From a virus (Duplodnaviria > Caudoviricetes): DNA of 28,237 nt. Shown one piece after another: positions 8,091 to 28,237 of this stretch; position 1 is the stretch's first letter; each line of letters starts with the position of its first letter. Under the pieces are notes generated by a model. The model was not told the DNA's origin. It was given only the letters and a program-made list of their open reading frames with translations, and did not search any database. The translations under genes were made by a program, and so were the position numbers. The stretch is from the IMG/VR virus record IMGVR_UViG_3300044630_002232, positions 1-28,237 of that record. One strand, written 5' to 3'.

Positions 8091-8662
8091 TTCTAAAAGT
8101 ACGCTCCCAGCTTGGCTTGGCAGAGCGCCTTGGCGTAAAGGCTATGGATGATTGCGGCCCTGCAAGCCTTGCAACCGCAGCTACCGCCCTTGGCATTGAT
8201 ACAAACACCAAGGCAGCGCACAAGGCGTGCGCGCAGGCTGGGCGTGTAGATACGCCTACCGGCGCAGAGGGCACCAGCGCAAAGCAGGTGCGCGATGCCG
8301 CAAAGATTCTGGGGCTGAAGGCACGCATTGTTTATGACTGGAGCGAGGCGAGCAATCAGGTAAAGGCTGGCAGCATCCTCATTCTGAATATCCAAGCCAG
8401 CCAAAAGGTAGTGCCAGACCGCCTACGCTCAAAGTGGCAGCGCGATTACTGGCGCAAGCAGCCGCTGGCAACCTACGGGCACTGGGTGGTGCTGGCATAT
8501 AGCAATTCAACTTGGGAGTATGCGTGCCCTACAATGAAAGAGGGCGTTGCGGGGCGCTGGGCTACACCTGATGAGGTGAAGGTGCTGCGCGATAGCAAGG
8601 GCAATGCTGGGTTTCCAACACCGCCCGCAATGGTGTTGATTAGCAAGAGGGGAGCCGCGTAA
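8087..8662 (+). CDS. Putative endolysin, peptidase C39-like cysteine peptidase (start revised to ATG 8087)
   Basis: SQL...DCGPASLA catalytic Cys and GHWVV catalytic His; lies between two membrane proteins; ATGA overlap. Confidence 0.75.
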   Translation: MILKVRSQLGLAERLGVKAMDDCGPASLATAATALGIDTNTKAAHKACAQAGRVDTPTGAEGTSAKQVRDAAKILGLKARIVYDWSEASNQVKAGSILILNIQASQKVVPDRLRSKWQRDYWRKQPLATYGHWVVLAYSNSTWEYACPTMKEGVAGRWATPDEVKVLRDSKGNAGFPTPPAMVLISKRGAA

Positions 8663-8991
8663 TGAATCCGATTATTAGTGACCTATTGAATGCGCTGATT
8701 GTGGGCTTGGTGCCTGTAGCAATTGGTGCGCTTGGCTATCTGGGCAAGCAGGTGATTGACTTTTTGCAGGCGCGTATGAGTGCTGAGCAGTTTGGAATGG
8801 TTGAGGCGATTGCCCGCACGGCGGTGCGCTCCATTGAGCAGACACTTGGCACAGAGGAAGGCGAAGCCAAAAAGGCAGCCGCCCTTGCGCTGGTGAAGTC
8901 TGAGTGCCTAAAGCGTGGCTACAAGCTGGACGATGAAGCCATTGGGGCGGCCATTGAGGCTGCCGTGTACCAAGAGCGCCTGAAGCGCTAA
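8662..8991 (+). CDS. Holin, LL-H family-like
   Basis: N-terminal TM helix then AVRSIEQ...GEAKK..A...IEAAV motif. Confidence 0.8.
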   Translation: MNPIISDLLNALIVGLVPVAIGALGYLGKQVIDFLQARMSAEQFGMVEAIARTAVRSIEQTLGTEEGEAKKAAALALVKSECLKRGYKLDDEAIGAAIEAAVYQERLKR

Positions 8992-8997
8992 CCGGCA

Positions 8998-9192
8998 ATG
9001 GCATACGCTGCCGCCAAAGAGCCGCCACCCTGGGGGCGCTGTGAGGTGTGTGGACTGAGCAGCCGCGTGTGGAAAGCCAATGAGTCTATCGTTGCGCTAG
9101 GCGCTGGGTACGCGGTGGTTGAGGGTGAGGGCTATTGCCGCGATTGCATTGCGCTGGCTGTTGAGCTGGCAGGCTCAGAGGATATTGACTAA
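8998..9192 (+). CDS. Small zinc-finger protein (CxxC...CxxC, 64 aa)
   Basis: CEVC and CRDC pairs; last ORF before the tandem hairpins. Confidence 0.6.
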   Translation: MAYAAAKEPPPWGRCEVCGLSSRVWKANESIVALGAGYAVVEGEGYCRDCIALAVELAGSEDID

Positions 9193-9245
9193 GCAGCCCT
9201 GAGAGGCTGCTTGACCCCCGCCCGTACCCTCCTCACGGGCGGGGG
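9191..9245 (+). terminator. Tandem hairpins ending the late operon
   Basis: AAGCAGCC/GGCTGCTT (9191-9212) and CCCCCGCCCGT/ACGGGCGGGGG (9215-9245). No clear U-tract, so the terminator role is uncertain. Confidence 0.5.
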
Positions 9246-9290
9246 CTACCCTCCGATTGTTACTATCCAGCCTGCATAAAAAATAGCCAC

Positions 9291-9339
9291 GCAACAACCG
9301 TTGCAAACGCTTGACAAGCGTTGCAGGGGGGTATACCTT
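9291..9339 (+). promoter_or_regulatory. Early promoter P1 with palindromic operator
   Basis: TTGACA 9311-9316, 17-nt spacer, TACCTT 9334-9339. Palindrome AACGCTTG-A-CAAGCGTT over the -35 and GCAAC-N4-GTTGC at 9291-9304. Confidence 0.8.
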
Positions 9340-9345
9340 AGGGGA

Positions 9346-9387
9346 GTCAGGGAGTGAATCCACCAAACGGTGGGCCTGGCAGGGAGT
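9346..9387 (+). promoter_or_regulatory. Structured 5' leader, copy 1
   Basis: GTCAGG/CCTGGC outer stem, GAGTGAA bulge, TCCACC/GGTGGG inner hairpin, then AGGGAGT RBS. Confidence 0.65.
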
Positions 9388-9393
9388 AAAGAA

Positions 9394-9687
9394 ATGGCTT
9401 TTGATGGCACACATATCTCAGTGGATTTGATTGCTAATGCCAGCGATTTGACTACAGAGGAAAAGATTAAAAGCTTGCGCGGAAAAATGGCTGCACAAAC
9501 CAGACAAATTAACGCTCTAAATATTTGGATTATCCGCTACAGCTCGCCGGATTATGTACCTACCAGCTACAACACAATGAGTGGTGCAGAAAATATTGTG
9601 TGGTGCGAAAGGGAAATCATTAGACATACGGCACAGCGCGAGCGCATTGCCGGTTTGCTTGCCGATGTGAAAAAGGCGGTGCGCTGA
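9394..9687 (+). CDS. Hypothetical early protein (97 aa, lower GC; start revised to ATG 9394)
   Basis: AGGGAG RBS at 9381-9386; TGATG coupling to the next ORF. Confidence 0.75.
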   Translation: MAFDGTHISVDLIANASDLTTEEKIKSLRGKMAAQTRQINALNIWIIRYSSPDYVPTSYNTMSGAENIVWCEREIIRHTAQRERIAGLLADVKKAVR

Positions 9688-9908
9688 TGCGCAGCACGCG
9701 TTATTGGGTAGTTGAGCGTGACGCTCACGGCGATTGCGTGGGCGATTACCTGAGCGCGGCTATACATAGCGATGCACTCAAGCTTGCCGGTCAGATTAAG
9801 CGCAGCGCTGACGCTGACACGGTGAGCATTGAGCTGGGCAAGATTGTTGACTTTGAGGGGCCTGCCCAAAATGAGCAGGTGCTAAAGGTGTGGGAGGTGG
9901 CACGATGA
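9687..9908 (+). CDS. Hypothetical early protein (73 aa)
   Basis: Coupled at both ends (TGATG, ATGA). Confidence 0.7.
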   Translation: MRSTRYWVVERDAHGDCVGDYLSAAIHSDALKLAGQIKRSADADTVSIELGKIVDFEGPAQNEQVLKVWEVAR

Positions 9909-9991
9909 TTACCAAGATTGCTGAGGCGCTGAGTGTGGCGCTGTTTATGTTTGCAATGGTGCTGCTACTTGCAGCGGGAGGGATGCAGTGA
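9905..9991 (+). CDS. 28-aa single-TM microprotein (not in ORF track)
   Basis: MITKIAEALSVALFMFAMVLLLAAGGMQ; GGAGGT RBS; ATGA and GTGA overlaps. Confidence 0.65.
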   Translation: MITKIAEALSVALFMFAMVLLLAAGGMQ

Positions 9992-10152
9992 AACTGAACA
10001 GGGCTAATGAGCCGGTGGTGCTCACTGATATGCGCCCGCTCAGCGTGCCGCGCTTGGTGCGCGGTGAGCAGCGTGCAGACAAACTGCGCTTTATTGCGCA
10101 GCTGCTTTTTGCTCTTGCTGGCTGGGTGTTTATCTATGCGTGGTTGAGTTAG
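9988..10152 (+). CDS. 54-aa protein with C-terminal TM (not in ORF track)
   Basis: MKLNRANEPVV...FIAQLLFALAGWVFIYAWLS; GGGAGGG RBS; coupled at both ends. Confidence 0.65.
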   Translation: MKLNRANEPVVLTDMRPLSVPRLVRGEQRADKLRFIAQLLFALAGWVFIYAWLS

Positions 10153-10340
10153 TGCCGCTCTATGTGTATCAGTGCCCCGTATGCAAAGCGCTTGATGAGC
10201 GCCTGCAAACGATTGATGCGCCACTTACTCCGCGCTGTGAAAAGTGTGGGTGCTTTATGCCCCGCGTAATCAATGCACCGGCGGTGCAATACAAAGGCTC
10301 AGGGTGGGCAAAGCAGGATAGAAAAAAGGAGGGAAAGTAA
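10152..10340 (+). CDS. FmdB-family zinc-ribbon protein (start revised to GTG 10152)
   Basis: MPLYVYQCPVC...CEKCG...RVINAPAVQYKGSGW is the FmdB/CxxC_CxxC_SSSS pattern. Confidence 0.85.
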   Translation: MPLYVYQCPVCKALDERLQTIDAPLTPRCEKCGCFMPRVINAPAVQYKGSGWAKQDRKKEGK

Positions 10341-11276
10341 ATGGCAAGAGTGTTTGAATTCGTGAAGGCCGCGCAGCGCTCACCTATATGGTTTGAGTTG
10401 CGCAAGGATGGAATCACAGCAACTGATGCGGTGGTGATTGCAGGGCTGTCACCGTACAAAACCCGCTACGAGCTGTGGGCACAAAAGAGCGGGCTGATTG
10501 GCGAGCAGCCAGCAGGTGAGGCTGCCACCCGCGGCATCCTGCTTGAGCAGGCTGTGGCTGATTGGTACACGCTAGAAACCGGCAGGAAGTTGAAGCGCAG
10601 CAATGGCATTGTGCGGCGCATTGATATCCCGTGGGCAATGGCAAGCCTTGACCGCACGGTGGTGGGTGAGCCTGGTTTGGTGGAGGTGAAAACCAGCACC
10701 AGCAGCCGCTGGCAGCTGTACCCAGTGCCGCCTGAATATGTGGCACAGGTTCAGTGGCAGGCATTCTGCACAGGCGCACCGTGGGTTGATGTGGTGGCGC
10801 TGCTAGGTGGGCTGAAGTTTAGGTGTGAGCGCGTAATGGCTGACCCTGACTATCAGCAAGAGCTGTACCGCAAGGCGGTTGAGTTTCGTGAGCTGATTGC
10901 CAGCGGCAAGCCGCCAGAGGTGATTGGCACAGACTCAGACACGCTGGCAAAGGTGGTACCGCAAGCCAGCGATGAATGGGCACACGCTGATGACGGCATT
11001 GAGCGCGTGGCTGAGCAGTATGCTGACGCGCTCTATGAGAGCAAGCTGGCTGATGAGCACCTACAGAATCTGGCAGTGGTGATTAAGGAAGCCATTGGGG
11101 ATAAGGTGGGCGTTACCGGCAAGGGCTGGTACGCCAGCTGGAAACAGAATAAGCCAAGCCGCAAGGTGGATTACAAGGCGGCGCTGGAGGCGGCAAAGGT
11201 GCCGCAGGAAATCATTCAAAGCGCAACTCAGGAAGTACCTGGGGCGCGGGTGTTTAAGTTTAAGAGGGGGGAATGA
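10341..11276 (+). CDS. YqaJ-like (lambda Exo family) 5'-3' exonuclease
   Basis: W..LR..GITATD, SPYKT, G..LE, ASLD, EVKT, Y..QVQWQ motifs. Confidence 0.92.
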   Translation: MARVFEFVKAAQRSPIWFELRKDGITATDAVVIAGLSPYKTRYELWAQKSGLIGEQPAGEAATRGILLEQAVADWYTLETGRKLKRSNGIVRRIDIPWAMASLDRTVVGEPGLVEVKTSTSSRWQLYPVPPEYVAQVQWQAFCTGAPWVDVVALLGGLKFRCERVMADPDYQQELYRKAVEFRELIASGKPPEVIGTDSDTLAKVVPQASDEWAHADDGIERVAEQYADALYESKLADEHLQNLAVVIKEAIGDKVGVTGKGWYASWKQNKPSRKVDYKAALEAAKVPQEIIQSATQEVPGARVFKFKRGE

Positions 11277-12010
11277 TGAGCAAGGAAATCGCAGCGGCGC
11301 TTAGCGCGCCATTTGAGGCTAAGGATTTGAAGCAGCGCCCAGGCAGGGCTGGGCTGGTGTTCACCTACGCGGATGCCCGCGCAGTTGCACAGCGGCTTGA
11401 TGATGTGCTGGGTATCGCTGGCTGGCAGTTTGAGGTAAAGGTGGCTGACCCTGCTAGGTGCGTGGTGCACGGCAGCTTGGCGCTGGTGATTGATGGCAGC
11501 ACCACAATCCGCCAAGATTACGGGTATCCCAATGGCCCGCAGGATGATGAGCCGCTGAAGTCAGCGGTGAGCGATGCGCTCCGCCGGTGCGCGGCGCAGG
11601 TGGGGGTAGGCCGCAGCCTTTACAGCCCCGATAAGAGCGCTGGGGCTACCAAGCCCCACATTGCAGCGGCACCAGCCCTTAGCGTGGCGCAAACCACCCC
11701 TGCAGGGCATTCTAGCGAGGGGGTCACAGCCCCTTCAAACGATGACCTGCTGGCAGTGAAGGCTGCAATGATTTTTGCAGAGTCAACCACTGAGGGCACT
11801 TGCAGCCACGGGCAGGCTTGGAGCCTGAAGCCAGGCGGGGTAAGCAAAGCTACGGGGAAGCCCTATAACCCATTCTGGGCAGCGAGCCACAAGGCACCTG
11901 ATGGCTCGTGGTGCAAGGATAAGCCAAGCAATCAGTGGGTAGCAGCCCACAGCAAGCCCGCGGCACCGGCACTGGTGCCTGAGGATACCTTTGAGGATTT
12001 GCCTTTTTAG
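11273..12010 (+). CDS. Rad52/Rad22 (Sak)-family single-strand annealing protein
   Basis: LSAPF, YADARAVAQRLDDVLG...W, KSAVSDALRRCAAQVGVGRSLY; adjacent to the exonuclease. Confidence 0.88.
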   Translation: MMSKEIAAALSAPFEAKDLKQRPGRAGLVFTYADARAVAQRLDDVLGIAGWQFEVKVADPARCVVHGSLALVIDGSTTIRQDYGYPNGPQDDEPLKSAVSDALRRCAAQVGVGRSLYSPDKSAGATKPHIAAAPALSVAQTTPAGHSSEGVTAPSNDDLLAVKAAMIFAESTTEGTCSHGQAWSLKPGGVSKATGKPYNPFWAASHKAPDGSWCKDKPSNQWVAAHSKPAAPALVPEDTFEDLPF

Positions 12011-12020
12011 GGTTCAGCAA

Positions 12021-12052
12021 TGGGTGGTGGCGGCGGGTTACGCCACCACCCA
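12021..12052 (+). promoter_or_regulatory. Strong intergenic hairpin before the replication initiator
   Basis: TGGGTGGTGGCG/CGCCACCACCCA 12-bp stem, no U-tract on the + strand. Confidence 0.55.
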
Positions 12053-12071
12053 CAAAACAGGGAGGGAATAA

Positions 12072-12512
12072 ATGGCACAAGGCGCGTGGATTAAGTTGAG
12101 CGTGGGATGGGATGAGGATGAGCGGATTGCGGTGCTACCACCGCTGGCGCAGCTCACCTATCTGAAGGTGTTGACACGGGCGAAGCGGCAGCGCCCTCAG
12201 GGTAGCTTTGGCAGCATTGAGCATTTGCGCACTCTGGTGCCTGCTAACCTGCACAAGCACTTATCAACATTGGTGAAGGTTGGCTTACTTTTTGAGTCAA
12301 ATAAAAGAATTTGCGTAGACAACTTTTCTAAATATCAAGTAGACCCTAGTGCAACGGAGCGCTCAAACAGGTTCAGAATGGCGCAACGCAACGGTTTTGC
12401 AACGCAAATGCAACGCACTGAGATAGAGAAAGAGAAAGAGAGAGAGAAAGAGAAAGACACTCTTACTAAACAGCCAATGCAAGTAGGCAAGATTTTGAGA
12501 GGCGGTATCTGA
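12072..12512 (+). CDS. Replication initiator / replisome organizer (lambda O / Phage_rep_org_N-like)
   Basis: N-terminal WIKL, wHTH-like L..L...GLL, NFSKYQ...ATERSNRFR, EIEKEKE linker; internal repeats. Confidence 0.8.
   Translation: MAQGAWIKLSVGWDEDERIAVLPPLAQLTYLKVLTRAKRQRPQGSFGSIEHLRTLVPANLHKHLSTLVKVGLLFESNKRICVDNFSKYQVDPSATERSNRFRMAQRNGFATQMQRTEIEKEKEREKEKDTLTKQPMQVGKILRGGI
12350..12458 (+). repeat. Putative replication origin: GCAACG iterons followed by a purine tract
   Basis: GCAACG at 12351, 12383, 12388, 12399, 12410 (last three 11 nt apart), then an A/G tract at 12420-12457 inside the initiator gene. Confidence 0.7.
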
Positions 12513-12880
12513 TGATGCGCAATGAGGGAGCAACCCACATTGACACCACGGGCATTGAGGGGATAGTTCCAGCAAACCCAAAGTGGGGTTTCTCAAACAT
12601 TGACCTTATCGGTGAGCGCAAGGGTAGGTTTCTGGTACAGGAATGGAAGCGCCCTAATGAGCAGTTGAGCACAGGGCAGAGGATTCTTTTAGAGCAGTTG
12701 GCGAAGCAGCCAGCCTTCACCGTGCTCGTGGTTACAGGGCACACCGCCGGTACGGCAATGACGGTGCACGCGGTGCACGAGATTATCGGCGGCAAGGCGC
12801 AACTCATTGCCACCACCACGGAGGCATTTAGGGAGTGCATCAGTGTCTGGTACGGCAAGGTTGAGCGTGGTGAGCTATGA
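12512..12880 (+). CDS. Hypothetical protein with PD-(D/E)xK nuclease-like motif
   Basis: NIDLIGE...FLVQEWKR...LSTGQ. Confidence 0.55.
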   Translation: MMRNEGATHIDTTGIEGIVPANPKWGFSNIDLIGERKGRFLVQEWKRPNEQLSTGQRILLEQLAKQPAFTVLVVTGHTAGTAMTVHAVHEIIGGKAQLIATTTEAFRECISVWYGKVERGEL

Positions 12881-13452
12881 AGCGCACGGTTGCCCTAATC
12901 GGGCCACAGGGCGCGGGTAAAACTACCTTGGCTGAGTTGCTGGTTGAGCACCGCGGCTACAGGCGGCACGGCATTGCTGATGGCATCAGGCGCGTGCTGC
13001 AAATGGCATACCGCGAGGGTGTCAGCAAGGGCGAAACCATTGACCTTCAACGCTTCAGCGGCAAGGTGACCCTCACAGGGCGCGAGCTGATGCAGGAAGT
13101 AGGGATGGCACTCCGCGATGTTGACCTTCATTTTTGGCTGCGCGTGTGGTCAGAGGGGTATAGCCAACTTTGGCAGAATGGCGTGCCCGTAGTGGTTGAC
13201 GATGTAAGGCTGCCCAGCGAGGTGCAAATGCTGCGCGTGATTGAGCCAAGCATTGCCATTGTGCGGGTGCACGCTGATGCTGAGGTGCGCAGGGAGCGTA
13301 GGGCTGGTGAATACACCGGCAATGGTGATATCACTGAAACAGGGTGGGAGGGGGCAGCGTTTGATGCCACGATTGACACCACCGCTTGCACGGTGCAAGA
13401 GGCATATGCAGCCCTGGTGGCTGCGATTGATGGAGGGAGTGAGAATGTTTGA
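12877..13452 (+). CDS. Deoxynucleoside monophosphate kinase
   Basis: P-loop GPQGAGKTT, RELMQEVG...R, VVDDVRLPSE. Confidence 0.85.
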   Translation: MKRTVALIGPQGAGKTTLAELLVEHRGYRRHGIADGIRRVLQMAYREGVSKGETIDLQRFSGKVTLTGRELMQEVGMALRDVDLHFWLRVWSEGYSQLWQNGVPVVVDDVRLPSEVQMLRVIEPSIAIVRVHADAEVRRERRAGEYTGNGDITETGWEGAAFDATIDTTACTVQEAYAALVAAIDGGSENV

Positions 13453-13645
13453 GCAGTTGAACACGCTATGCGCAATGGTGGGGTATCAGTTTGATGCCCT
13501 GCTGGCGGTTCCAAGCGGCGGCTTTGTCTGCGTGCTCGTGGATAGGCTTGATGGCGAGCTGGAGTTTAAGGGCGAAACCCCACAGGCAGCCGTGCAGGCC
13601 GCCATTGACCGGCTTGAGGTAGTAAGTGGGAGTATTGCCCATTGA
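13445..13645 (+). CDS. Hypothetical protein (66 aa; start revised to ATG 13445)
   Basis: GGAGGGAG RBS; GETPQAA.QAA motif seen in small phage proteins. Confidence 0.65.
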   Translation: MFEQLNTLCAMVGYQFDALLAVPSGGFVCVLVDRLDGELEFKGETPQAAVQAAIDRLEVVSGSIAH

Positions 13646-13824
13646 ATACCTTTAACGCTCTAGGGGTAACGCTGGCAGTGCTGCAGCTCACGATGGCAAT
13701 ACTGGTTGCGCTTTCTATCCCCACTGCAAGCAAGCGCGGCAGCGGTTGGCTGGCTGCTATGTACGCAGTGCTTGGGTTTGCTACCGTGGTGTGGATTATG
13801 AGGGCGGCACTATGGCAGGCGTAA
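13642..13824 (+). CDS. Small two-TM membrane protein (60 aa)
   Basis: Two hydrophobic helices; TTGA overlap; GGGAG RBS. Confidence 0.6.
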   Translation: MNTFNALGVTLAVLQLTMAILVALSIPTASKRGSGWLAAMYAVLGFATVVWIMRAALWQA

Positions 13825-13991
13825 AGACTTCACGGGGCGGCGCAAGCAAGGCACCCGTGTTTGCGCCTACCCCGTGCGCTGAGTGCGGGCAAACCATTGA
13901 CACCGGCAAGGATGCCACCCGTGTGCTGCGCATTGGCTATGAGCCCAAGCAGCGCAGGCTGGAGTGGATGCACAAGGCGCACATAAAATGA
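13812..13991 (+). CDS. Small Zn-finger-like protein (start revised to ATG 13812)
   Basis: GAGGG RBS; CAECG...HKAH. Confidence 0.55.
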   Translation: MAGVKTSRGGASKAPVFAPTPCAECGQTIDTGKDATRVLRIGYEPKQRRLEWMHKAHIK

Positions 13992-14224
13992 CCCGCAGGC
14001 GATGGCGCTGCACTTTTTGCAGGCAGCAATTTGCGCCACCCAAGGATGGCAAGATTCCTTGGCTATGGCTCTGCGCGCCCTGCGAGATAATGAAAATTGA
14101 GCAGGCTGCGGATTGGGTGAGTTCAGAAGTTACGCACTTTGTACGCGCAAAAACAAAAGGCACGCAGCCAAATTACTCACGGCTATCTTGGGCATTACGG
14201 GAAGCAGAGAGGTACGCCAAATGA
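13988..14224 (+). CDS. Small CxxC...CxxC protein (start revised to ATG 13988)
   Basis: ATGA overlaps at both ends; CTFC and CAPC. Confidence 0.55.
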   Translation: MTRRRWRCTFCRQQFAPPKDGKIPWLWLCAPCEIMKIEQAADWVSSEVTHFVRAKTKGTQPNYSRLSWALREAERYAK

Positions 14225-14514
14225 CCCGCATAGAGCGAGCTGCACCATTCCTTGATGAGCGCGTGATTGCGGTGCAAGAGGGCGCTGATGCGTGGTGCTA
14301 TGAGCCTGGGGTTGGAGGCAGGGCGTGGTGCATTCTCAGCCAGCGCTTTGCTGATGCGGTAGCGCCTGAAGGCTGGTTTTTTCTGTACGAGGGAATTGGA
14401 AACCGAAAAACAAACCTAGACCTTGTGAAGCACGGGCTAATGGAATTGGAGCAGAGCCGGTTCACCTTGAGCGATGGCGGCACCGCGCAGCTCGCAAGGC
14501 TTTTAGAGGAATGA
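14221..14514 (+). CDS. Hypothetical protein (97 aa; start revised to ATG 14221)
   Basis: GAGG RBS and ATGA overlap. Confidence 0.65.
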   Translation: MTRIERAAPFLDERVIAVQEGADAWCYEPGVGGRAWCILSQRFADAVAPEGWFFLYEGIGNRKTNLDLVKHGLMELEQSRFTLSDGGTAQLARLLEE

Positions 14515-14594
14515 GCAAAATGCCCGTGCCATTTATTTTTTACGCACAAACTAAAAATGTGTTGAGCGTGAAAGTTAGTGAAACGGAAAAACAG

Positions 14595-14669
14595 CGTTGC
14601 ACCGTATGGTATAATGGTGTTAGCAGTGAGGAAGCAAACCAAAAGGTTTGCACTGCAAAAGGAGTGAGA
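14595..14669 (+). promoter_or_regulatory. Promoter P3 (extended -10) with CGTTGCA box and structured leader, copy 2
   Basis: CGTTGCA 14595-14601; TGGTATAAT 14607-14615; GCAGT/ACTGC stem, GAGGAA bulge, GCAAACC/GGTTTGC hairpin; AAGGAG RBS; AT-rich upstream. Confidence 0.75.
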
Positions 14670-14672
14670 GGA

Positions 14673-14849
14673 ATGCAAAAGAAAAACTGCATTGGTGTAA
14701 AGCGTAGAGCTGGCGATGACGGCAAGTGCAACAAGCCTAGACTTCATAGCTGGAAATACAACGGCAAAAAACTATATTGCACTGATTGCTTTACTTACAA
14801 AATCAATGAGATGAAGCTGCGAGATACCAGGGTTCGGTTCGGAATCTGA
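14673..14849 (+). CDS. Small basic Cys-rich protein (58 aa), likely true start inside track ORF 14511..14849
   Basis: In-frame ATG 14673 after AAGGAG RBS and promoter P3; low GC; C...C...CxxC. Confidence 0.6.
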   Translation: MQKKNCIGVKRRAGDDGKCNKPRLHSWKYNGKKLYCTDCFTYKINEMKLRDTRVRFGI

Positions 14850-15232
14850 TGGGGCACTTCAAGGATGAGGCGATTAAGCAAGGCATTGACCCAGCCAAGA
14901 GCCGCAAGGGTAAAAACAGCCGCCAACGCGGGCACGCGTTTGAAAGATTTGTGGCGGAGAAACTTGGCGGTAGGCGTGTTGGACACTTTGGCGGAAAAGC
15001 AGATGCCACCGGCGGTGAAGGTGAATGGCTGCAGGTGCAATGTAAAGTGGGCGGCAGCTTCAGTGAGCGCCAATGGGATTGGCTGCAGAGTGTGCCCGTA
15101 AAGAGTGACCAGCTGCGTGGCTTGGTGATTGGTGACAGCCCAGGCGTTGGAGGCGGGCGAAGGCGCGCAGTTATCGTGCTGGATTTGGATGACTTCACAG
15201 AGTGGTTTGTAAGCAAGCCAACCGATGAGTAG
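14849..15232 (+). CDS. Holliday-junction-resolvase-like PD-(D/E)xK nuclease
   Basis: SRQRGHAFERFVA...AD...VQCK...LDLDDF pattern typical of phage Hjc-like resolvases. Confidence 0.7.
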   Translation: MGHFKDEAIKQGIDPAKSRKGKNSRQRGHAFERFVAEKLGGRRVGHFGGKADATGGEGEWLQVQCKVGGSFSERQWDWLQSVPVKSDQLRGLVIGDSPGVGGGRRRAVIVLDLDDFTEWFVSKPTDE

Positions 15233-15806
15233 CGCCAACTTTGCGGCGCGCTTTGCACCGCACCTAGGCGCAACCCGTAGGTGGCAGGCGTTTGTGTTTA
15301 TCGCTGATGCCCTCGCTGAGCTGCGCAGACCTATCGGCATTGTTGAAACAGGATGCTTGCGCCAGCCAGATAACTGGGCAGGTGACGGCCAGAGCACCGC
15401 GGTGTGGGATTGGCTGCTTAATCAGCACGGCGGCTATGGGCATTCCTATGACATCAGCCCAGACAGCGTGGCAGCAGCCCGCGCAGCGGTAAGCAAGATG
15501 GAGGTGCACCAGCAGGATTCTGTTGAGGCGCTGCGCACATTCCCAAATGCCAGCACCATTGACCTGCTCTATTTGGATTCCTATGACTGGACGGCTAACA
15601 GCGATGCCAGCGCCCTGCACCACCGCGCTGAGCTGGACGCTATCTATGACCGCCTGCGCCCAGGGTGCCTCATTGCGGTTGATGACTGTATGGGCAAGAG
15701 CAAGGGTAAGCACGCGCTGGTGCTGCCGTGGCTGGCTGAGCGTGGGGTTGAGCCTATTGTTACAGGGTATGTATATGTGTGGCGCAAGCCACCTGCAACG
15801 GCTTGA
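15225..15806 (+). CDS. Class I SAM-dependent methyltransferase (Methyltransf_24-like; not a DNA MTase)
   Basis: IVETG, YDI, DSVEAL, IDLLYLDS, LRPGCLIAVDD motifs. Confidence 0.85.
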   Translation: MSSANFAARFAPHLGATRRWQAFVFIADALAELRRPIGIVETGCLRQPDNWAGDGQSTAVWDWLLNQHGGYGHSYDISPDSVAAARAAVSKMEVHQQDSVEALRTFPNASTIDLLYLDSYDWTANSDASALHHRAELDAIYDRLRPGCLIAVDDCMGKSKGKHALVLPWLAERGVEPIVTGYVYVWRKPPATA

Positions 15807-15885
15807 CACCGTTGCAACAGGGGTGCTAGGATTGCTTCAGCAGCGAGGAAACCGGCAAGTTGCTGGAGCTGCAAAAGGAGTGAGA
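15794..15885 (+). promoter_or_regulatory. Promoter P2 with palindromic operator and structured leader, copy 3
   Basis: TGCAACGG-CTTGACA-CCGTTGCA (15794-15816); TG-C-TAGGAT 15824-15832; GCAGC/GCTGC stem, GAGGAA bulge, CCGGC/GCTGG hairpin; AAGGAG RBS. Confidence 0.8.
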
Positions 15886-15887
15886 AA

Positions 15888-16088
15888 ATGAATGCAACCG
15901 CTCTAAGGATTGCAACGAGGATTATCACCGAAACCTACCCTGCCGCTGTGGTAACGGCGCTTGGCAAGTTTAAGTTCAATGGCACTGACTTTACCGGCAA
16001 GGTGCGGGTTACTGGTTACCAGATGCGCCCAGTAATTTATGCAGTCACCGCTAAGGGCTCTGCAGTATCCCTAAAGGCGGTGCGCTAA
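15888..16088 (+). CDS. Hypothetical early protein (66 aa)
   Basis: Strong RBS; TAATG coupling. Confidence 0.7.
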   Translation: MNATALRIATRIITETYPAAVVTALGKFKFNGTDFTGKVRVTGYQMRPVIYAVTAKGSAVSLKAVR

Positions 16089-16336
16089 TGAAGCTGACCA
16101 TTGCGCACATTGAGGCGCTGATGTTCAACCCAGCACGCGGGGGCTTTGGCTACCTTGGGTGCCGTGAGTATATGACCGGCAAGCAAAAGGCTTACGGTGA
16201 CCGCCAGCTACTAAAGTTTGCCAATGCAAATGGCTGGGATATGTCTGACCTGTTCTACTGGGCTGACAGCAAGGCAGGCCGCTGGTTTGGTGATGCAATT
16301 GTTGGCGGTGGTAAGCCCACCGTACAGGCTGACTGA
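16088..16336 (+). CDS. Hypothetical protein (82 aa)
   Basis: Coupled at both ends; SKAGRWFGD motif. Confidence 0.7.
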   Translation: MKLTIAHIEALMFNPARGGFGYLGCREYMTGKQKAYGDRQLLKFANANGWDMSDLFYWADSKAGRWFGDAIVGGGKPTVQAD

Positions 16337-16725
16337 TGACCGCCCTGCTGCTGGCGTTGAGTTTAGTGCTCAACCCAGCAGCTCCACCCCGCTCTCACGG
16401 CGTGGCCTCGTGGTATGACGCAGAGCGCAAGGGGCAAAGCAGCTGGTACAGCCGCGCAGGCATAATCAATTACGCAGCTGCTGCAGGCTGGCGCTGGGGG
16501 CAAAAACCTTATATGCTGCGGGTCTGCCGGCAGGATGACAAAAACAAATGCGTGGTGGTGACCGTAGTTGACTGGTGTGGCAGGTGTAATAAAGATGCGG
16601 GGAGAAAGTGGAAAAAAAACAGCAGGATTCTAGACCTATCACCGGCAGCGTTTATGAAACTGGAAAGCCTGGGGCGCGGGCTAGTACGCGTAAGCATTCA
16701 GGCAATCCAACCGCGCGGGCGCTAA
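16336..16725 (+). CDS. Secreted RlpA-like double-psi beta-barrel (lytic transglycosylase/expansin-like) protein
   Basis: Hydrophobic signal peptide, GVASWY, VVVTVVDWCG, RILDLSPAAFMKL...GLVRV. Confidence 0.85.
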   Translation: MTALLLALSLVLNPAAPPRSHGVASWYDAERKGQSSWYSRAGIINYAAAAGWRWGQKPYMLRVCRQDDKNKCVVVTVVDWCGRCNKDAGRKWKKNSRILDLSPAAFMKLESLGRGLVRVSIQAIQPRGR

Positions 16726-17129
16726 TTGACGATTTCTCGCACGCGGTGCGTATATGGGCACACCGCCTGAAGGTAAGCCCAAACAAACTCTTTGGGATGA
16801 CTGAGCACCACCAGCGCAGCGTGCACTGGATGCGTGAGCGCTACTTTGGTGGCGTGGTGCCAACACTTGATGAGGTTGAGTGGGTGAAGGCGTATGCCCT
16901 AGCGATTACACAAACCCTTGCAGAGCCTACGCAACTGAAGCGCTACCAGCTAGTGGTTGAGCAAATGTGCCGCACTTGCGTAGGCGCAGAGCAGCGTGAC
17001 CGCTACCCAAAGTGCTGGGATGCAACCTGCCCACTGCGCCCCATTAGCCCGCTGCCGTTGGCGGATAGTGCCAAGACCAAGGCACCGCTTGACGCTGACC
17101 GCGCCTATGAGCGCCCAGGCGAGGCGTAG
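16608..17129 (+). CDS. Hypothetical protein with C-terminal CxxC...CxxxxCPL metal-binding motif (start uncertain)
   Basis: Only long + strand ORF filling the gap; the GTG 16608 start overlaps the RlpA-like gene by 118 nt. Confidence 0.6.
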   Translation: MEKKQQDSRPITGSVYETGKPGARASTRKHSGNPTARALIDDFSHAVRIWAHRLKVSPNKLFGMTEHHQRSVHWMRERYFGGVVPTLDEVEWVKAYALAITQTLAEPTQLKRYQLVVEQMCRTCVGAEQRDRYPKCWDATCPLRPISPLPLADSAKTKAPLDADRAYERPGEA

Positions 17130-17142
17130 TGTAGGATTCGGC

Positions 17143-17212
17143 AACGCCTGTGATTCACTCCACAGGCACCCCGCCCGCTGGTGGTGTCCTCCCACCGGCG
17201 GGCGCTATTATT
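17143..17212 (+). ncRNA. Candidate two-hairpin small RNA with anti-SD loops
   Basis: TAGGAT -10-like at 17132-17137; hairpin GCCTGTG/CACAGGC (loop ATTCACTC); 13-bp hairpin 17172-17204 (loop TGTCCTC); then CTATTATT. Confidence 0.5.
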
Positions 17213-17216
17213 AGGC

Positions 17217-17298
17217 GGGGCGGCGTAGATGCAGCGGCTCATATAGGCAATGCCTGAGCGTGCTAAACGCGGGGTGCAACTCCCCGCCCGCTCCATCA
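17217..17298 (+). ncRNA. tRNA-Ala/tmRNA-TLD-like mini RNA
   Basis: Acceptor GGGGCGG/CCGCTCC with G3:U70 and discriminator A; T-arm GCGGGG-TGCAACT-CCCCGC; no D-stem and no canonical anticodon loop. Confidence 0.6.
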
Positions 17299-17318
17299 TC
17301 AGAGTTAAGGGGAGGCGT

Positions 17319-17735
17319 ATGGCAAAGCAATCGGCAGCAGATAAGTGGACAGTGCTTACCGCCTACCTTGCTGAGCTGCAGGCTGCCTTGCTGCTCTCGC
17401 ATTGGCGCGTGAGCGTTGCACAAGATGCCAGCGATGTTGATGCCTGGGCTGATATCAGCGTTACCAGCCAAGCGGCCTTCACCGCTGAGATGCGAATAAG
17501 CCACGATTTCTGGCGGCAAGAGCCTGAGCGCCAGCGTGAGGTAATGATTCACGAGCTGCTACACCTGAATGCACACCAGGCTGATTCGGTGGTTGACAAT
17601 CTTGAAAAGCCGCTGGGTGAGATTGCGTGGGCAGTGTTCAGCCCACAGTACGAGGATGCCACTGAGCGCACGGTTGACCATATGGCAAAGGTGCTGGCGC
17701 AATTCCTACCGCTGCCAGAGTTTCCCAAGGCGTGA
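17319..17735 (+). CDS. HEXXH zincin-like protein (138 aa; start revised to ATG 17319)
   Basis: GGGGAGG RBS; VMIHELLH plus downstream E (TERTVD). Confidence 0.7.
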   Translation: MAKQSAADKWTVLTAYLAELQAALLLSHWRVSVAQDASDVDAWADISVTSQAAFTAEMRISHDFWRQEPERQREVMIHELLHLNAHQADSVVDNLEKPLGEIAWAVFSPQYEDATERTVDHMAKVLAQFLPLPEFPKA

Positions 17736-18046
17736 GGTTTCAGCGCCCCTGCCTTGATTGCGGAATACTCACACAGGGCGGAAACCGCTGCGAGGTGCAC
17801 CGGCGCGTAGCTCAAGCAAAGTGGAAGCAGGGCAGACCCAACCCGTACCTAAACCCAGCGTGGCGCAAGCTGAGCGCCCAGGTGCGCGCTAAGCGCCCGT
17901 GGTGTGAGGGATGCGGTGCCACTGGGGTGAGGCTGACCGTTGACCATATCCAGCCCCTGAGCGCAGGCGGGGCGCTGATTGTGCCAGAGCACGCGTTAAG
18001 GGTACTATGCTTGCAATGCCACGGCAGAGTGACGCGGCACAAATAG
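17732..18046 (+). CDS. HNH endonuclease (HK97 gp74-like packaging cofactor)
   Basis: RPCLDCG...C..H; Y...WRKL; CEGCG; VDHIQPLSAGG; LCLQCH. Confidence 0.9.
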   Translation: MRFQRPCLDCGILTQGGNRCEVHRRVAQAKWKQGRPNPYLNPAWRKLSAQVRAKRPWCEGCGATGVRLTVDHIQPLSAGGALIVPEHALRVLCLQCHGRVTRHK

Positions 18047-18059
18047 AGGGAGGGAAGCA

Positions 18060-18470
18060 ATGCCATTTAAAAACCCAGACCACAAAATTGCGGCACAGAG
18101 GCGAAGGCGAGGGGTGCTCAGCAGGCAGCAACTCAACGCTATGAATTTGAAGCAGCGCGCTTACAGGTATGGCATTACGATTACTGAAATTGAGCAGCAC
18201 ATTGCTCGTGGTTGCTTGGCGAAGCACATTAGTGACTGCAATGGCCCCATTCAAATTGACCACAGCCATAGTTGCTGCCCAGGCAATAACTCTTGTGGCA
18301 ATTGCGTCCGCGGGGCATTATGCCGGAGGCATAACATAGCGCTTGGCTATATAGAGATTGACCCAGCATTTACTGCGTGGGCAATTGCATCATATGCTCC
18401 ACTGTTTGATGCTCGCAATGAGATGCCAAGCAAGATTGATTGGGCAAAATTATTGAGGGGGGAACAATGA
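18060..18470 (+). CDS. Endonuclease VII-like nuclease
   Basis: YGIT...IDHSHSCC...SCGNCVRGALC..HN.ALG; lower GC. Confidence 0.85.
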   Translation: MPFKNPDHKIAAQRRRRGVLSRQQLNAMNLKQRAYRYGITITEIEQHIARGCLAKHISDCNGPIQIDHSHSCCPGNNSCGNCVRGALCRRHNIALGYIEIDPAFTAWAIASYAPLFDARNEMPSKIDWAKLLRGEQ

Positions 18471-19687
18471 GCCGCATTGCTTGGTATTCAAACAGCTGTG
18501 CCGTGCCAAGTGGCTATGGCCAGCAATCGGCTCAAGTGGTGCACAGGATGGTGCAGGACGGGCACGAGGTAGCGATTAGCGCCAACCACGGCGCAAGCGT
18601 AATGATGAATTGCGCGAGCGGGCACATCATCCTGCCTGAAGGGTTGATGCGCTACAGCATTGACGCTGCGCCAGAGAATATGAAAGCGTGGGCTGAGGGC
18701 AAGCCAGATTCGTTTGGGGTGGTGCTTTTTGATTTGTGGCCGCTCGTAGGTGTTGAGGGCTTTAAAGAGTTAAACCTTGCCTGCTGGACACCCGTAGACC
18801 ATAAACCCCTGCCACCAATGGTGCTGCAGTTTCTGCGTGAGGGAAGCCACCACGCTATTGCAATGAGTCAGTTTGGCGAGCAAGAGCTGCTTAGCGCGGG
18901 AGTTCCGCGCGCGGAGGTTTCCTATATTCCGCACGCCATTGACCGCACCGTGTTTAAAGACACAGGCAAGGGTGCGCGTGAGGCTATGGGGATTCCAGCG
19001 GATGCATTCCTCGTGGTAACTAATGCGGCCAACCGCGGGCGCATTCCCGTGCGCAAGGGCTTTGGTGAAATGGCTGATGCGATGAGCCGCTTGATGGCTG
19101 ACCGCAAAGATGTCTACTGGATGCTTCACACCGAGCCTAATGGGTTTAGCGAAGGCGTAAACATTCCGCGCCTAGTGGCGCACCTTGGGATTGACCAGCA
19201 GCGCGTGCGTTACCCGCACCCAATGCATTGGCGTAACGGAATCGCTGACAGTTCCATTGCCGCGATGTATTCAGCAAGCGATGTGCAGCTCCTGACTTCA
19301 ATGGGGGAAGGGTTTGGGATTCCTGCCGTGGAGGGGATGAGTGCAGGCCTGCCTTGCGTGGTTTCAGATTTCAGTGCACAGGCTGAGTTGATTGGCGTGC
19401 ATAGCCACAAGGTGCCGGTGCAACGCGTGTGGGATGAATACCAGCAATCCTTTTTCGGAATCCCGAATGTGGAGGCAATCTACAAAGCGCTGCAGGATGT
19501 CTATGAGGAAACCAAAGCGGGGAAGGTTGACCGCGCTGCCGTGGCAGCAGAAATGGCACGCTATGACGCTGACACCGTCTATGAGGAAAAGTGGAAGCCA
19601 CTCATTGCAATGATGAGCGCACGCCAGAAACCAGCGGCACAGCAGCCGCTTAACCGCGCAGCGCGCAGAGCGAAGGGGGGAAAGTAA
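18467..19687 (+). CDS. GT-B glycosyltransferase (GT4 / Glycos_transf_1-like; start revised to ATG 18467)
   Basis: SGYG, IPHAID, NAAN..RKG, MYSASDV...EGFGIPAVEGMSAGLP (EX7E). Confidence 0.92.
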   Translation: MSRIAWYSNSCAVPSGYGQQSAQVVHRMVQDGHEVAISANHGASVMMNCASGHIILPEGLMRYSIDAAPENMKAWAEGKPDSFGVVLFDLWPLVGVEGFKELNLACWTPVDHKPLPPMVLQFLREGSHHAIAMSQFGEQELLSAGVPRAEVSYIPHAIDRTVFKDTGKGAREAMGIPADAFLVVTNAANRGRIPVRKGFGEMADAMSRLMADRKDVYWMLHTEPNGFSEGVNIPRLVAHLGIDQQRVRYPHPMHWRNGIADSSIAAMYSASDVQLLTSMGEGFGIPAVEGMSAGLPCVVSDFSAQAELIGVHSHKVPVQRVWDEYQQSFFGIPNVEAIYKALQDVYEETKAGKVDRAAVAAEMARYDADTVYEEKWKPLIAMMSARQKPAAQQPLNRAARRAKGGK

Positions 19688-27009: not shown

Positions 27010-27614
27010 TGAGTTACGCAACGCTGGCAGAATTCAAGAGCGCTATTGGGATTGGCACCGCTGACACCACTGATGATGGTGCGCTGCAATCTGTGCTTGA
27101 TGCAACTGATGCGCTGATTGACCTTTACACAGACCGCAAGCAGGGCTTTGGCACTGCAACTGAAACGCGCTACTACACCGCCGGTGATTGGTCATATGTG
27201 CTGACTGATGACATTGTGAGTGTCAGCCAGCTGCAGACTGATGATAACGGTGACGGCACTTACGAAACCACCTGGACGGCGGCAACGGATTATGTGCTTG
27301 CTCCGCGCAATGCTGCGCTTGATGGCTGGCCTTACACAGAGATTGATACGAGCACACCAGCGCCTAAGGCATTCCCTGTTGCGGTATATCTTGGCGTGAA
27401 GGTAACTGGCGTATTTGGCTGGCCTACAGTTCCAAGCGCAGTGAAGCAAGCCGCAATTATTCAGGCTGGTGCTGTGTGGTCATCTAGGACAAGTCCATTC
27501 GGCATTATTGGCTCGCAGGAGCTGGGTGGAATTTTGCGCCAGACACGCGCACTGCATCCTGAAGCGCAGGTGCTGCTTGACGGATTCCGCAAGCGCGATG
27601 GGTTGGCGCGGTGA
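27009..27614 (+). CDS. Head-tail adaptor/connector (HK97 gp6 / SPP1 gp15-like, 201 aa)
   Basis: YATLAEFK, L..ATDALID.YT.R, GWP.VP.AVKQA. Confidence 0.85.
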   Translation: MSYATLAEFKSAIGIGTADTTDDGALQSVLDATDALIDLYTDRKQGFGTATETRYYTAGDWSYVLTDDIVSVSQLQTDDNGDGTYETTWTAATDYVLAPRNAALDGWPYTEIDTSTPAPKAFPVAVYLGVKVTGVFGWPTVPSAVKQAAIIQAGAVWSSRTSPFGIIGSQELGGILRQTRALHPEAQVLLDGFRKRDGLAR

Positions 27615-28054
27615 GTTTCAACGATGTCACCATTATCAACGCGCTCGCAGCGCACCTAACAGCGGCAACACCGCCTACCGGCTACACACTCCGCAAGGTG
27701 CACGCATACCCGCCAGACAATCTTGCGGTAGTGCCAGCAGCGGTGATTGTGCCCGCTGATGACAGCGTGAGCTACGGGGCGGCAAATAGGCAGGTAACGC
27801 TCAACCTTGCGGTTACGGTGTACCTGCACCCACAGGCTGACTTGGGGCGAAAGTACCAAGACCTTATGGCGTGGCGCACCTGGTTGCGTGATTCTCTTAT
27901 TGACGGTGTTACACTTAACGGCACTGACGCGGTGGCGCAAGCCAGCGTGACGGGCACAAGCATTGGCAATGACCAATGGAATGAAATGGATTACCTAACA
28001 GTGACAGCCACCGTAGAGGTGTCAGCAGTGGAGGCAATTAATGCCAGCGCGTAA
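27611..28054 (+). CDS. Putative tail terminator, variant allele of 229..672
   Basis: Same length, few amino-acid differences. Confidence 0.65.
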   Translation: MSFNDVTIINALAAHLTAATPPTGYTLRKVHAYPPDNLAVVPAAVIVPADDSVSYGAANRQVTLNLAVTVYLHPQADLGRKYQDLMAWRTWLRDSLIDGVTLNGTDAVAQASVTGTSIGNDQWNEMDYLTVTATVEVSAVEAINASA

Positions 28055-28237
28055 GCCATACGAAACAGCAGACCAAATTGAAGTGCAGTATGTTGACGGC
28101 TCGCTGCCTCGTGGAGAGTTTGTAGGCGGGTTACCGCTTGACGGCTCTACAATCAGCGTGCCTGCTACTATTGCTCAGGCGTGGATTCAGGCGGGCGTTG
28201 CCAAGCCTGTAAATAAGACAGCCGCACCAGCGGCTAT
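28041..28237 (+). CDS. Variant allele of 659..874, truncated by the window end
   Basis: MPARKPYETADQIEVQY versus MPPRKVTENSEQIEVQY. Confidence 0.7.
   Translation, partial: MPARKPYETADQIEVQYVDGSLPRGEFVGGLPLDGSTISVPATIAQAWIQAGVAKPVNKTAAPAA

Follow-up and report, generated by a model that had tools for sequence, protein, structure and literature searches.

Layout of the genome and of the early/late boundary

The window, that is, the whole stretch of 28,237 nt analyzed here, contains the whole genome of a tailed phage of ~27.4 kb with a terminal repeat, and every annotated gene lies on the + strand. Early genes (RecE-like, Rad52-like, rep and kinase) extend from 9394 to 17129, and late genes (HNH, terminase, portal, capsid, tail and holin) are found from 17319 onward. 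No match to integrase or repressor families was obtained among the 41 ORFs. The closest terminase of a cultured phage is 45% identical, and a GTDB protein search found no relative; one match to a pattern was due to chance. Over the 300 nt compared, identity between the two copies of the terminal overlap (1-855 and 27383-28237) is only 96%, so that the assembly may join two strain variants. GATC and TCGA are wholly absent and GGAC/GTCC strongly depleted in the clade of this genome only, as seen across the whole genome and in the related locus L008, which suggests a host with different restriction systems.

A two-hairpin element on the + strand is located at the boundary between the early and late genes. 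It begins downstream of the -10 box of a likely late promoter (17132-17137), which lacks a -35 in the genome's clade, and is followed by a tRNA-like element of 79 nt (17217-17295, + strand) and by the first late gene (17319-17735). The latter encodes an HExxH protein with weak, below cut-off peptidase-like Pfam matches, and served as the anchor for finding relatives. The segment 17144-17212 folds as two hairpins with a z-score of -7.2, a value that none of 200 shuffled sequences equaled. Hairpin 1 (17146-17167) has a 7-bp stem and an 8-nt loop, AUUCACUC (17153-17160), which is clade-specific; hairpin 2 (17172-17204) has a 13-bp stem and a 7-nt anti-SD loop, UGUCCUC (17185-17191), and is the strongest terminator-like call within 8500-19000. 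One RNA sequencing run (share 0.05), compared at a likeness of 80%, gave contigs of relatives at low depth, one of them of 613 nt over 16953-17530; as such contigs show neither ends nor strand, they speak neither for nor against expression.

The initial annotation had described this region as a candidate sRNA whose first loop is antisense to early leaders, and every match that it stated was confirmed. Reverse complementarity between 17152-17161 and 9351-9360 is exact, and the 10-mer is found once. On the + strand, GGAGTGA is confined to 9351, 13436, 14661 and 15877, and TAGGAT to 15827 and 17132, with no -35/-10 pair called at the latter position. The 10-nt complement stands, but only eight of its nucleotides are unpaired, as the outer two bases form the closing pair of the hairpin; in the same way, the anti-SD loop of hairpin 2 was recovered, with the last two C of the annotated UCCUCCC placed in the stem. 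The warning that a 10-nt match could arise by chance was well founded: among 123 hairpins of this genome with a stem of at least 7 bp and a loop of 7-9 nt, 11 have their whole loop and closing pair complemented elsewhere on the + strand. The loop-1 match is thus unremarkable alone, and matters only through where it falls.

The same annotation had assumed a phage with no visible repressor, a premise that is unsafe in view of two HTH-like proteins and of operator-like palindromes whose changes follow those of repeats inside rep. The model of the replication initiator Rep (12072-12512, + strand; PHROG 3926) is winged-helix-like, and that of the 173-aa product of the ORF directly upstream of the late -10 (16608-17129, + strand), which also carries four cysteines, is an XRE-type HTH. 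Fold scores were weak, with no match at E ≤ 0.001; most of the listed fold matches of the 173-aa protein are XRE-family HTH proteins. PDB sequence and Atlas searches with both proteins returned nothing informative. We consider the 173-aa protein a candidate transcription regulator. Its cysteine motif was not found in L012/L014/L218-type loci; in some of these loci the late promoter includes a -35-like box. Operator-like palindromes lie at the early promoters (9299-9324, 14592-14604 and 15795-15815), and the internal repeats of rep (12351-12415) resemble them. A stretch of at least 7 nt is common to promoter spacer and rep-gene repeats in 27 of 44 cognate pairs compared with 28% of non-cognate ones, with 7.7 vs. 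5.1 nt in clade A and 7.3 vs. 4.5 nt in clade B. Palindromes and repeats therefore change together between clades, ambiguously so for the L023 clade, whose operators fit the rep of clade A as well as their own. From these patterns, Rep may both start replication and control the early promoters. A hairpin with a GCGGGUUA loop, possibly a protein-binding site, precedes the rep gene at 12021-12051; it occurs in several relatives and constitutes hairpin 1 in the late leader of L013.

Conservation of hairpin 2 and of the tRNA-like element

Scans of IMG/VR provided 144 oriented loci, the genome itself counted, after three loci of the first scan without upstream sequence were dropped; one A5 row contains half a hairpin only. 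Trees were built from 62 and 97 distinct rows, with 27 loci missing from the latter. Hairpin 2 precedes the first late gene in 139 of the 144 loci, with an uninterrupted stem of 12-13 bp and a 7-nt loop that, in 88 distinct contexts, reads [AU]GUCCUC in 83, UUUCCUC in four and CUUCCUC in one. Among 28 hand-picked variants the stem is 100% paired, with two-sided changes in 10 of 12 pairs (0/500 shuffles), and the frequency of G-U pairs places the hairpin on the + strand. A pattern scan gave 119 matches, 97 of which have a homolog of the first late gene within 1.3 kb, and nine previously unseen contexts retrieved in this way have the same layout; a hairpin-2 model did not score in 19 unrelated loci. 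Hairpin 2 is missing from this place in L269-L273. In L269 the two leaders have no bulge, in L270-L273 P1 was not located, and in L270-L273 the tRNA-like element alone stands behind the -10.

In 85 of the 88 distinct contexts, the 75 nt preceding hairpin 2 include a TAnnnT box, compared with a background of 1.4% per five positions, and the nearest box, which was the one chosen (by hand in five rows), ends 0-9 nt before the first stem. The interpretation given in the initial annotation is supported in part, and these data speak for one of its components, a structured RNA below a conserved -10, here at the start of the late operon. Most relatives have no U-tail after hairpin 2. It therefore fits the beginning of the late transcript better than a terminator, and intrinsic termination was rejected as its role throughout the family. 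A coding explanation of the conservation was likewise rejected, as the upstream genes differ and the stems covary. Overall, the two hairpins form a real, conserved and uncatalogued RNA element, with a regulatory target that is plausible and partly supported. The initial annotation had been built on hairpin 1; across the aligned relatives, it is hairpin 2 that forms the family-wide core, and a cis partner of hairpin 2 in many relatives, as well as the tRNA-like element downstream, had been overlooked.

The 8-nt loop 1 occurs in 10 of the 139 loci, all belonging to one clade (support of 100/99 in the 62-row tree and 0.99 in the 97-row tree), where it is invariant despite two compensatory changes in its stem. 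In other clades the hairpin-1 position is mostly taken by 4-nt loops or by no hairpin. When metagenomes were scanned allowing any 8-nt loop, the three true loci among 15 matches all had the same loop 1, and a 14-mer loop scan for further variants of the clade gave mostly chance loci.

The tRNA-like element combines a 7-bp acceptor stem bearing G3-U70 and A73 with a T stem of 6 bp; where the D and anticodon arms would be, it has an irregular hairpin. All seven acceptor pairs, G3-U70 and all six T-stem pairs are kept in 33 of 33 distinct copies, and CCA is encoded in the element of other clades. No ARAGORN or Rfam call was obtained for 17217-17295. Its distribution is patchy, with 66 of 139 loci having it and 73 not; in L263 and L355 it is reduced to acceptor and T arm. 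Alanine identity elements with a T arm and no D stem, and a tRNA-like fold 3′ of a structured RNA, are known from the tRNA-like domain of tmRNA and from mascRNA. The G3-U70 acceptor, A73, T arm and missing D stem of tmRNA are found in the phage copies (33/33), and, as with mascRNA, the fold lies 3′ of a structured RNA; the only mascRNA score was a sub-threshold one in one relative (E 0.82). Unlike tmRNA, the phage element lacks an mRNA domain with tag and pseudoknots, and its acceptor-T branch has 13 bp (7+6) instead of 12. According to PMC5389517, G3-U70 is the main element for alanyl-tRNA synthetase, and 7+6 is not among the acceptor/T branches listed there (7/5, 8/4, 9/3, 8/5 and 9/4). No such tRNA mimic was found in the main-text literature searched.

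The tRNA-like element could be a processing signal, with RNase P cleaving at its 5′ end to release both hairpins as an RNA of ~73 nt, or a decoy for alanyl-tRNA synthetase or SmpB. Since 73 of 139 loci lack it and most relatives have no U-tail, a free sRNA is not general, and about half of the family would need another release route or would use the hairpins as an mRNA leader.

Early leaders and their complementarity to the loops

The early leaders (n = 68) share an architecture: right after the -10, a stem with a purine bulge of 5-8 nt and an inner hairpin is followed by an unpaired SD. The bulge has a nearly invariant AGGA core. In this genome, where all of the following early elements are on the + strand, promoter P1 (9311-9339), with its operator-like palindrome and conserved layout, is followed by a leader hairpin (9346-9380) whose bulge, GAGUGAA(U), occupies 9352-9359. 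The P3 leader (14623-14667) has the bulge GAGGAA (14628-14633) and the SD GGAGUGA (14661-14667), the P2 leader (15840-15883) the bulge GAGGAAA (15845-15851) and the SD GGAGUGA (15877-15883), and the 66-aa early ORF at 13445 an SD at 13436-13442. The first gene behind each early leader varies among close relatives whereas promoter and leader are constant (9394 onward and 15888 onward), an arrangement of modular cassettes.

When + strand sites were ranked with accessibility, the four sites that the initial annotation had named for loop 1 took ranks 1-4 genome-wide, in the order P1 bulge, P3 SD, SD of the ORF at 13445, and P2 SD. Across the family, the leader bulge pairs with its cognate loop over 5-7 bp in 21 of 22 distinct loop/bulge sets, compared with a 1% background for loop 2; the exception consists of the bulges of L016/L018, with only 4 bp. 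With loops from outside the genome's clade, the P1 bulge of this clade, GAGUGAAU, makes only 3 bp; with loop 1, it makes 8 of 8. Of the 53 loci for which both regions are available, seven have both loop 1 and the changed P1 bulge, 46 have neither and none is discordant (L069 and L003, among the loci scored, look near-identical). The co-change comprises two complementary insertions at corresponding positions, a U on the side of the bulge and an A on that of the loop. Of the co-variation of loop and target in relatives that had been proposed as a check, a co-change at the level of the clade was observed; all of it falls on a single branch (100/99) and represents one event. Neither partner varies within the clade, and the P1 bulge is invariant in all 20 true clade P1 leaders, from 22 pattern matches, while the downstream SD and gene vary. 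We infer from the relatives that the match between loop 1 and the P1 bulge is more than chance.

The usual loop 2 of the clade, UUUCCUC, pairs with the P2 bulge over 7 of 7 positions, and the P2 and P3 bulges rank 4 and 6 among its sites. Loop 2 of the genome itself and of L001 is UGUCCUC, with only 5 bp to the same bulges (ranks 47 and 26). The G-to-U change could be explained without RNA pairing by the clade-wide depletion of GGAC/GTCC, a three- to fourfold shortage seen on both strands in the genome and L008 (22 against 66 expected, and 5 against 20), unlike in four other loci. Within the clade, GAGUGA is present in seven of 73 early start regions and in none of 54 late ones. One late SD, in L005, complements loop 1. 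Outside the clade, GAGGA is equally common in early (140/492) and late (61/215) start regions, as counted from rough gene calls. Loop 2 thus cannot choose early genes by RBS alone, and avoidance of the target motif by late genes outside the clade was rejected. More generally, being SD-like or anti-SD-like, the two pairing partners have no a priori independence.

At P2 and P3, the site for loop 2 (bulge) lies 5′ of that for loop 1 (SD), which is the antiparallel order expected for a two-contact complex. Cofolding of the hairpin RNA with the leaders predicted no strand invasion; any complex would therefore be of the kissing type, and an extended duplex was discarded. A K-turn reading of the leader bulge was dismissed on inspection.

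Proposed repression of early leaders and rival explanations

The best reading of these data, to which we assign a probability of roughly one half, is that the hairpins of a late RNA repress the early leaders by kissing contacts similar to those between RNAIII and rot. It builds on the folds and their conservation, on the complementarity and on the co-change seen at the level of the clade, all of which are established; transcription from 17132, its late timing, pairing in the cell and a repressive sign of the effect are inferred. The late promoter would fire, perhaps activated by the HTH protein encoded upstream, and produce a transcript with the two hairpins at its 5′ end. Their exposed loops would pair with the 5′ leaders of early mRNAs, loop to bulge and loop to SD: at P1, the 8-nt bulge would be recognized by loop 1, and P2 and P3 would each make two contacts, one between the bulge and loop 2 and one between the SD and loop 1. 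Pairing would lower early translation initiation once late transcription is on and perhaps invite RNase III. In the genome's clade, RNase P may cut at the tRNA-like element to give an RNA of ~73 nt (about 17144-17216). Such an RNA would be a second layer of control beside the protein regulators, not necessarily the switch itself.

A more far-reaching version, which we regard as possible but doubtful, would see an all-RNA late-to-early feedback in a lytic phage family. The hairpins would be freed at an alanine-type tRNA mimic by a mascRNA-like release and kiss the bulge and SD of every early leader, the second loop having evolved to recapture a mutated tag.

PMC2837412 describes C-rich hairpin loops of S. 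aureus RNAIII acting on rot and coa mRNAs through two loop-loop contacts, in the 5′ UTR and at the RBS; C-rich loops are likewise seen in the phage RNA, and two contacts are proposed for P2 and P3. Unlike RNAIII, the phage RNA has ~70 nt, its predicted targets are the phage's own early leaders, pairing would involve a stem bulge, and there is no sequence relation. The Cuckoo, RSs0680 and ar14 sRNAs, as presented in PMC4615179, share modular adjacent hairpins, variable compensating stems and anti-SD loops with it. The two hairpins fall within the two to four adjacent ones of Cuckoo RNAs; the CCUCCUCCC that these carry in each loop was not found, the phage loops being AUUCACUC and [AU]GUCCUC/UUUCCUC. 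Also unlike Cuckoo RNAs, the phage loops differ from each other, and the element is confined to one phage family in IMG/VR. Rfam covariance models run over the element in the genome and five relatives gave no match at E ≤ 1, neither Cuckoo nor C4-type.

C4 and CI RNAs are phage RNAs that act on the phage's own leaders and maintain immunity in temperate elements. According to PMC5499578, P1/P7 C4 and P4 CI are RNase P substrates. Targets in the phage's own leaders are found here as complementarity only, and the adjacent tRNA-like element is no more than suggestive of a similar maturation. In contrast to the temperate elements with C4/CI, this genome has no integrase or repressor match, and its RNA lies at the late promoter and has no Rfam C4 match. 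The phage sRNAs found in the literature are concerned with lysogeny, with a single antisense partner or with genes of the host. A trans RNA silencing the phage's own early leaders was not encountered in that literature, which included two of the six parts of a 2025 review (PMC12197685); 38 uncharacterized sRNAs are tabulated in the supplement of that review.

Alternatively, hairpin 2 may be a cis element: an extra GAGGAC just ahead of the first late SD would pair with its loop into an H-type pseudoknot that tunes late translation or stability, the early match being a by-product of SD likeness. Of the 38 contexts without the tRNA-like element, 26 have a 6-7 bp cis partner for loop 2, in 25 of them 9-13 nt past the stem, and the extra motif occurs at none of 320 other SD-like sites (not deduplicated). 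The geometry is canonical (1-nt L1 and 6-bp S2), and in five contexts hairpin 2 begins 8 nt past the -10. In L009, L014, L029, L218 and their kin, the extra GAGGAC completes the pseudoknot. The genome's clade, the large L023 clade and the L012 group nonetheless retain the loop although they lack the partner, and loop 1 has no target in the late leader, its best sites all being early. We consider this explanation unlikely.

A generic function is rather improbable, but would account for a second anti-SD hairpin, H0 (9215-9245, + strand), which has an 11-bp stem and the loop ACCCUCCUC (z = -4.2). It lies upstream of P1, where the late operon ends, and a hairpin of this kind and size is found in 22 of 23 distinct P1-upstream regions. 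Its position closing the late operon suggests a more general use of anti-SD loops: hairpin 2 and H0, at both ends of the late unit, might act on SDs broadly, host mRNAs included, or protect the ends, the bulge being a standby site for 30S or a site for a protein, and the matches having arisen by convergence. That late genes outside the clade do not avoid GAGGA fits this explanation, as does the AGGA core of the bulge, whose near-invariance is expected of a protein site. However, the exactly complementary departure of loop 1 and P1 bulge from the family consensus would be left unexplained, and the late SDs of the clade are G-rich and fit the standard anti-SD. In L012-type genomes, the H0 loop is an 8-nt complement of the SD of the first P1 gene.

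The 3′ ends of type I toxin mRNAs fold back on the 5′ leader and time a burst of translation. By analogy, the hairpins could be the 3′ end of read-through transcripts from P1, P3 and P2 that fold back on their own 5′ leaders and time a burst of early translation. All genes are on the + strand, P2 is just 1.3 kb upstream, and the terminator-like score of hairpin 2 would agree with such a role; against it, the -10 conserved close upstream points to a separate transcript, most relatives lack a U-rich tail, and P1 is 7.8 kb away, which leaves it with little probability. Lastly, that proteins alone, with Rep at the palindromes and the 173-aa protein at the late promoter, make the early-to-late change while the RNA match has no regulatory part seems very improbable, since the operator/rep-repeat sharing and HTH-like models in its favor are compatible with the RNA model, the fold matches are weak, the L023 operators fit two reps equally well, and loop conservation would be unexplained.

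The compact Ala-type tRNA mimic is a puzzle separate from the repression model. The latter, with an RNA of 70 nt and 8-nt partners defined in loop and bulge, lends itself directly to a reporter test. If true, repression of early leaders by the late hairpins would constitute a minimal kissing-loop switch and a case of co-evolution between a regulator and its target.
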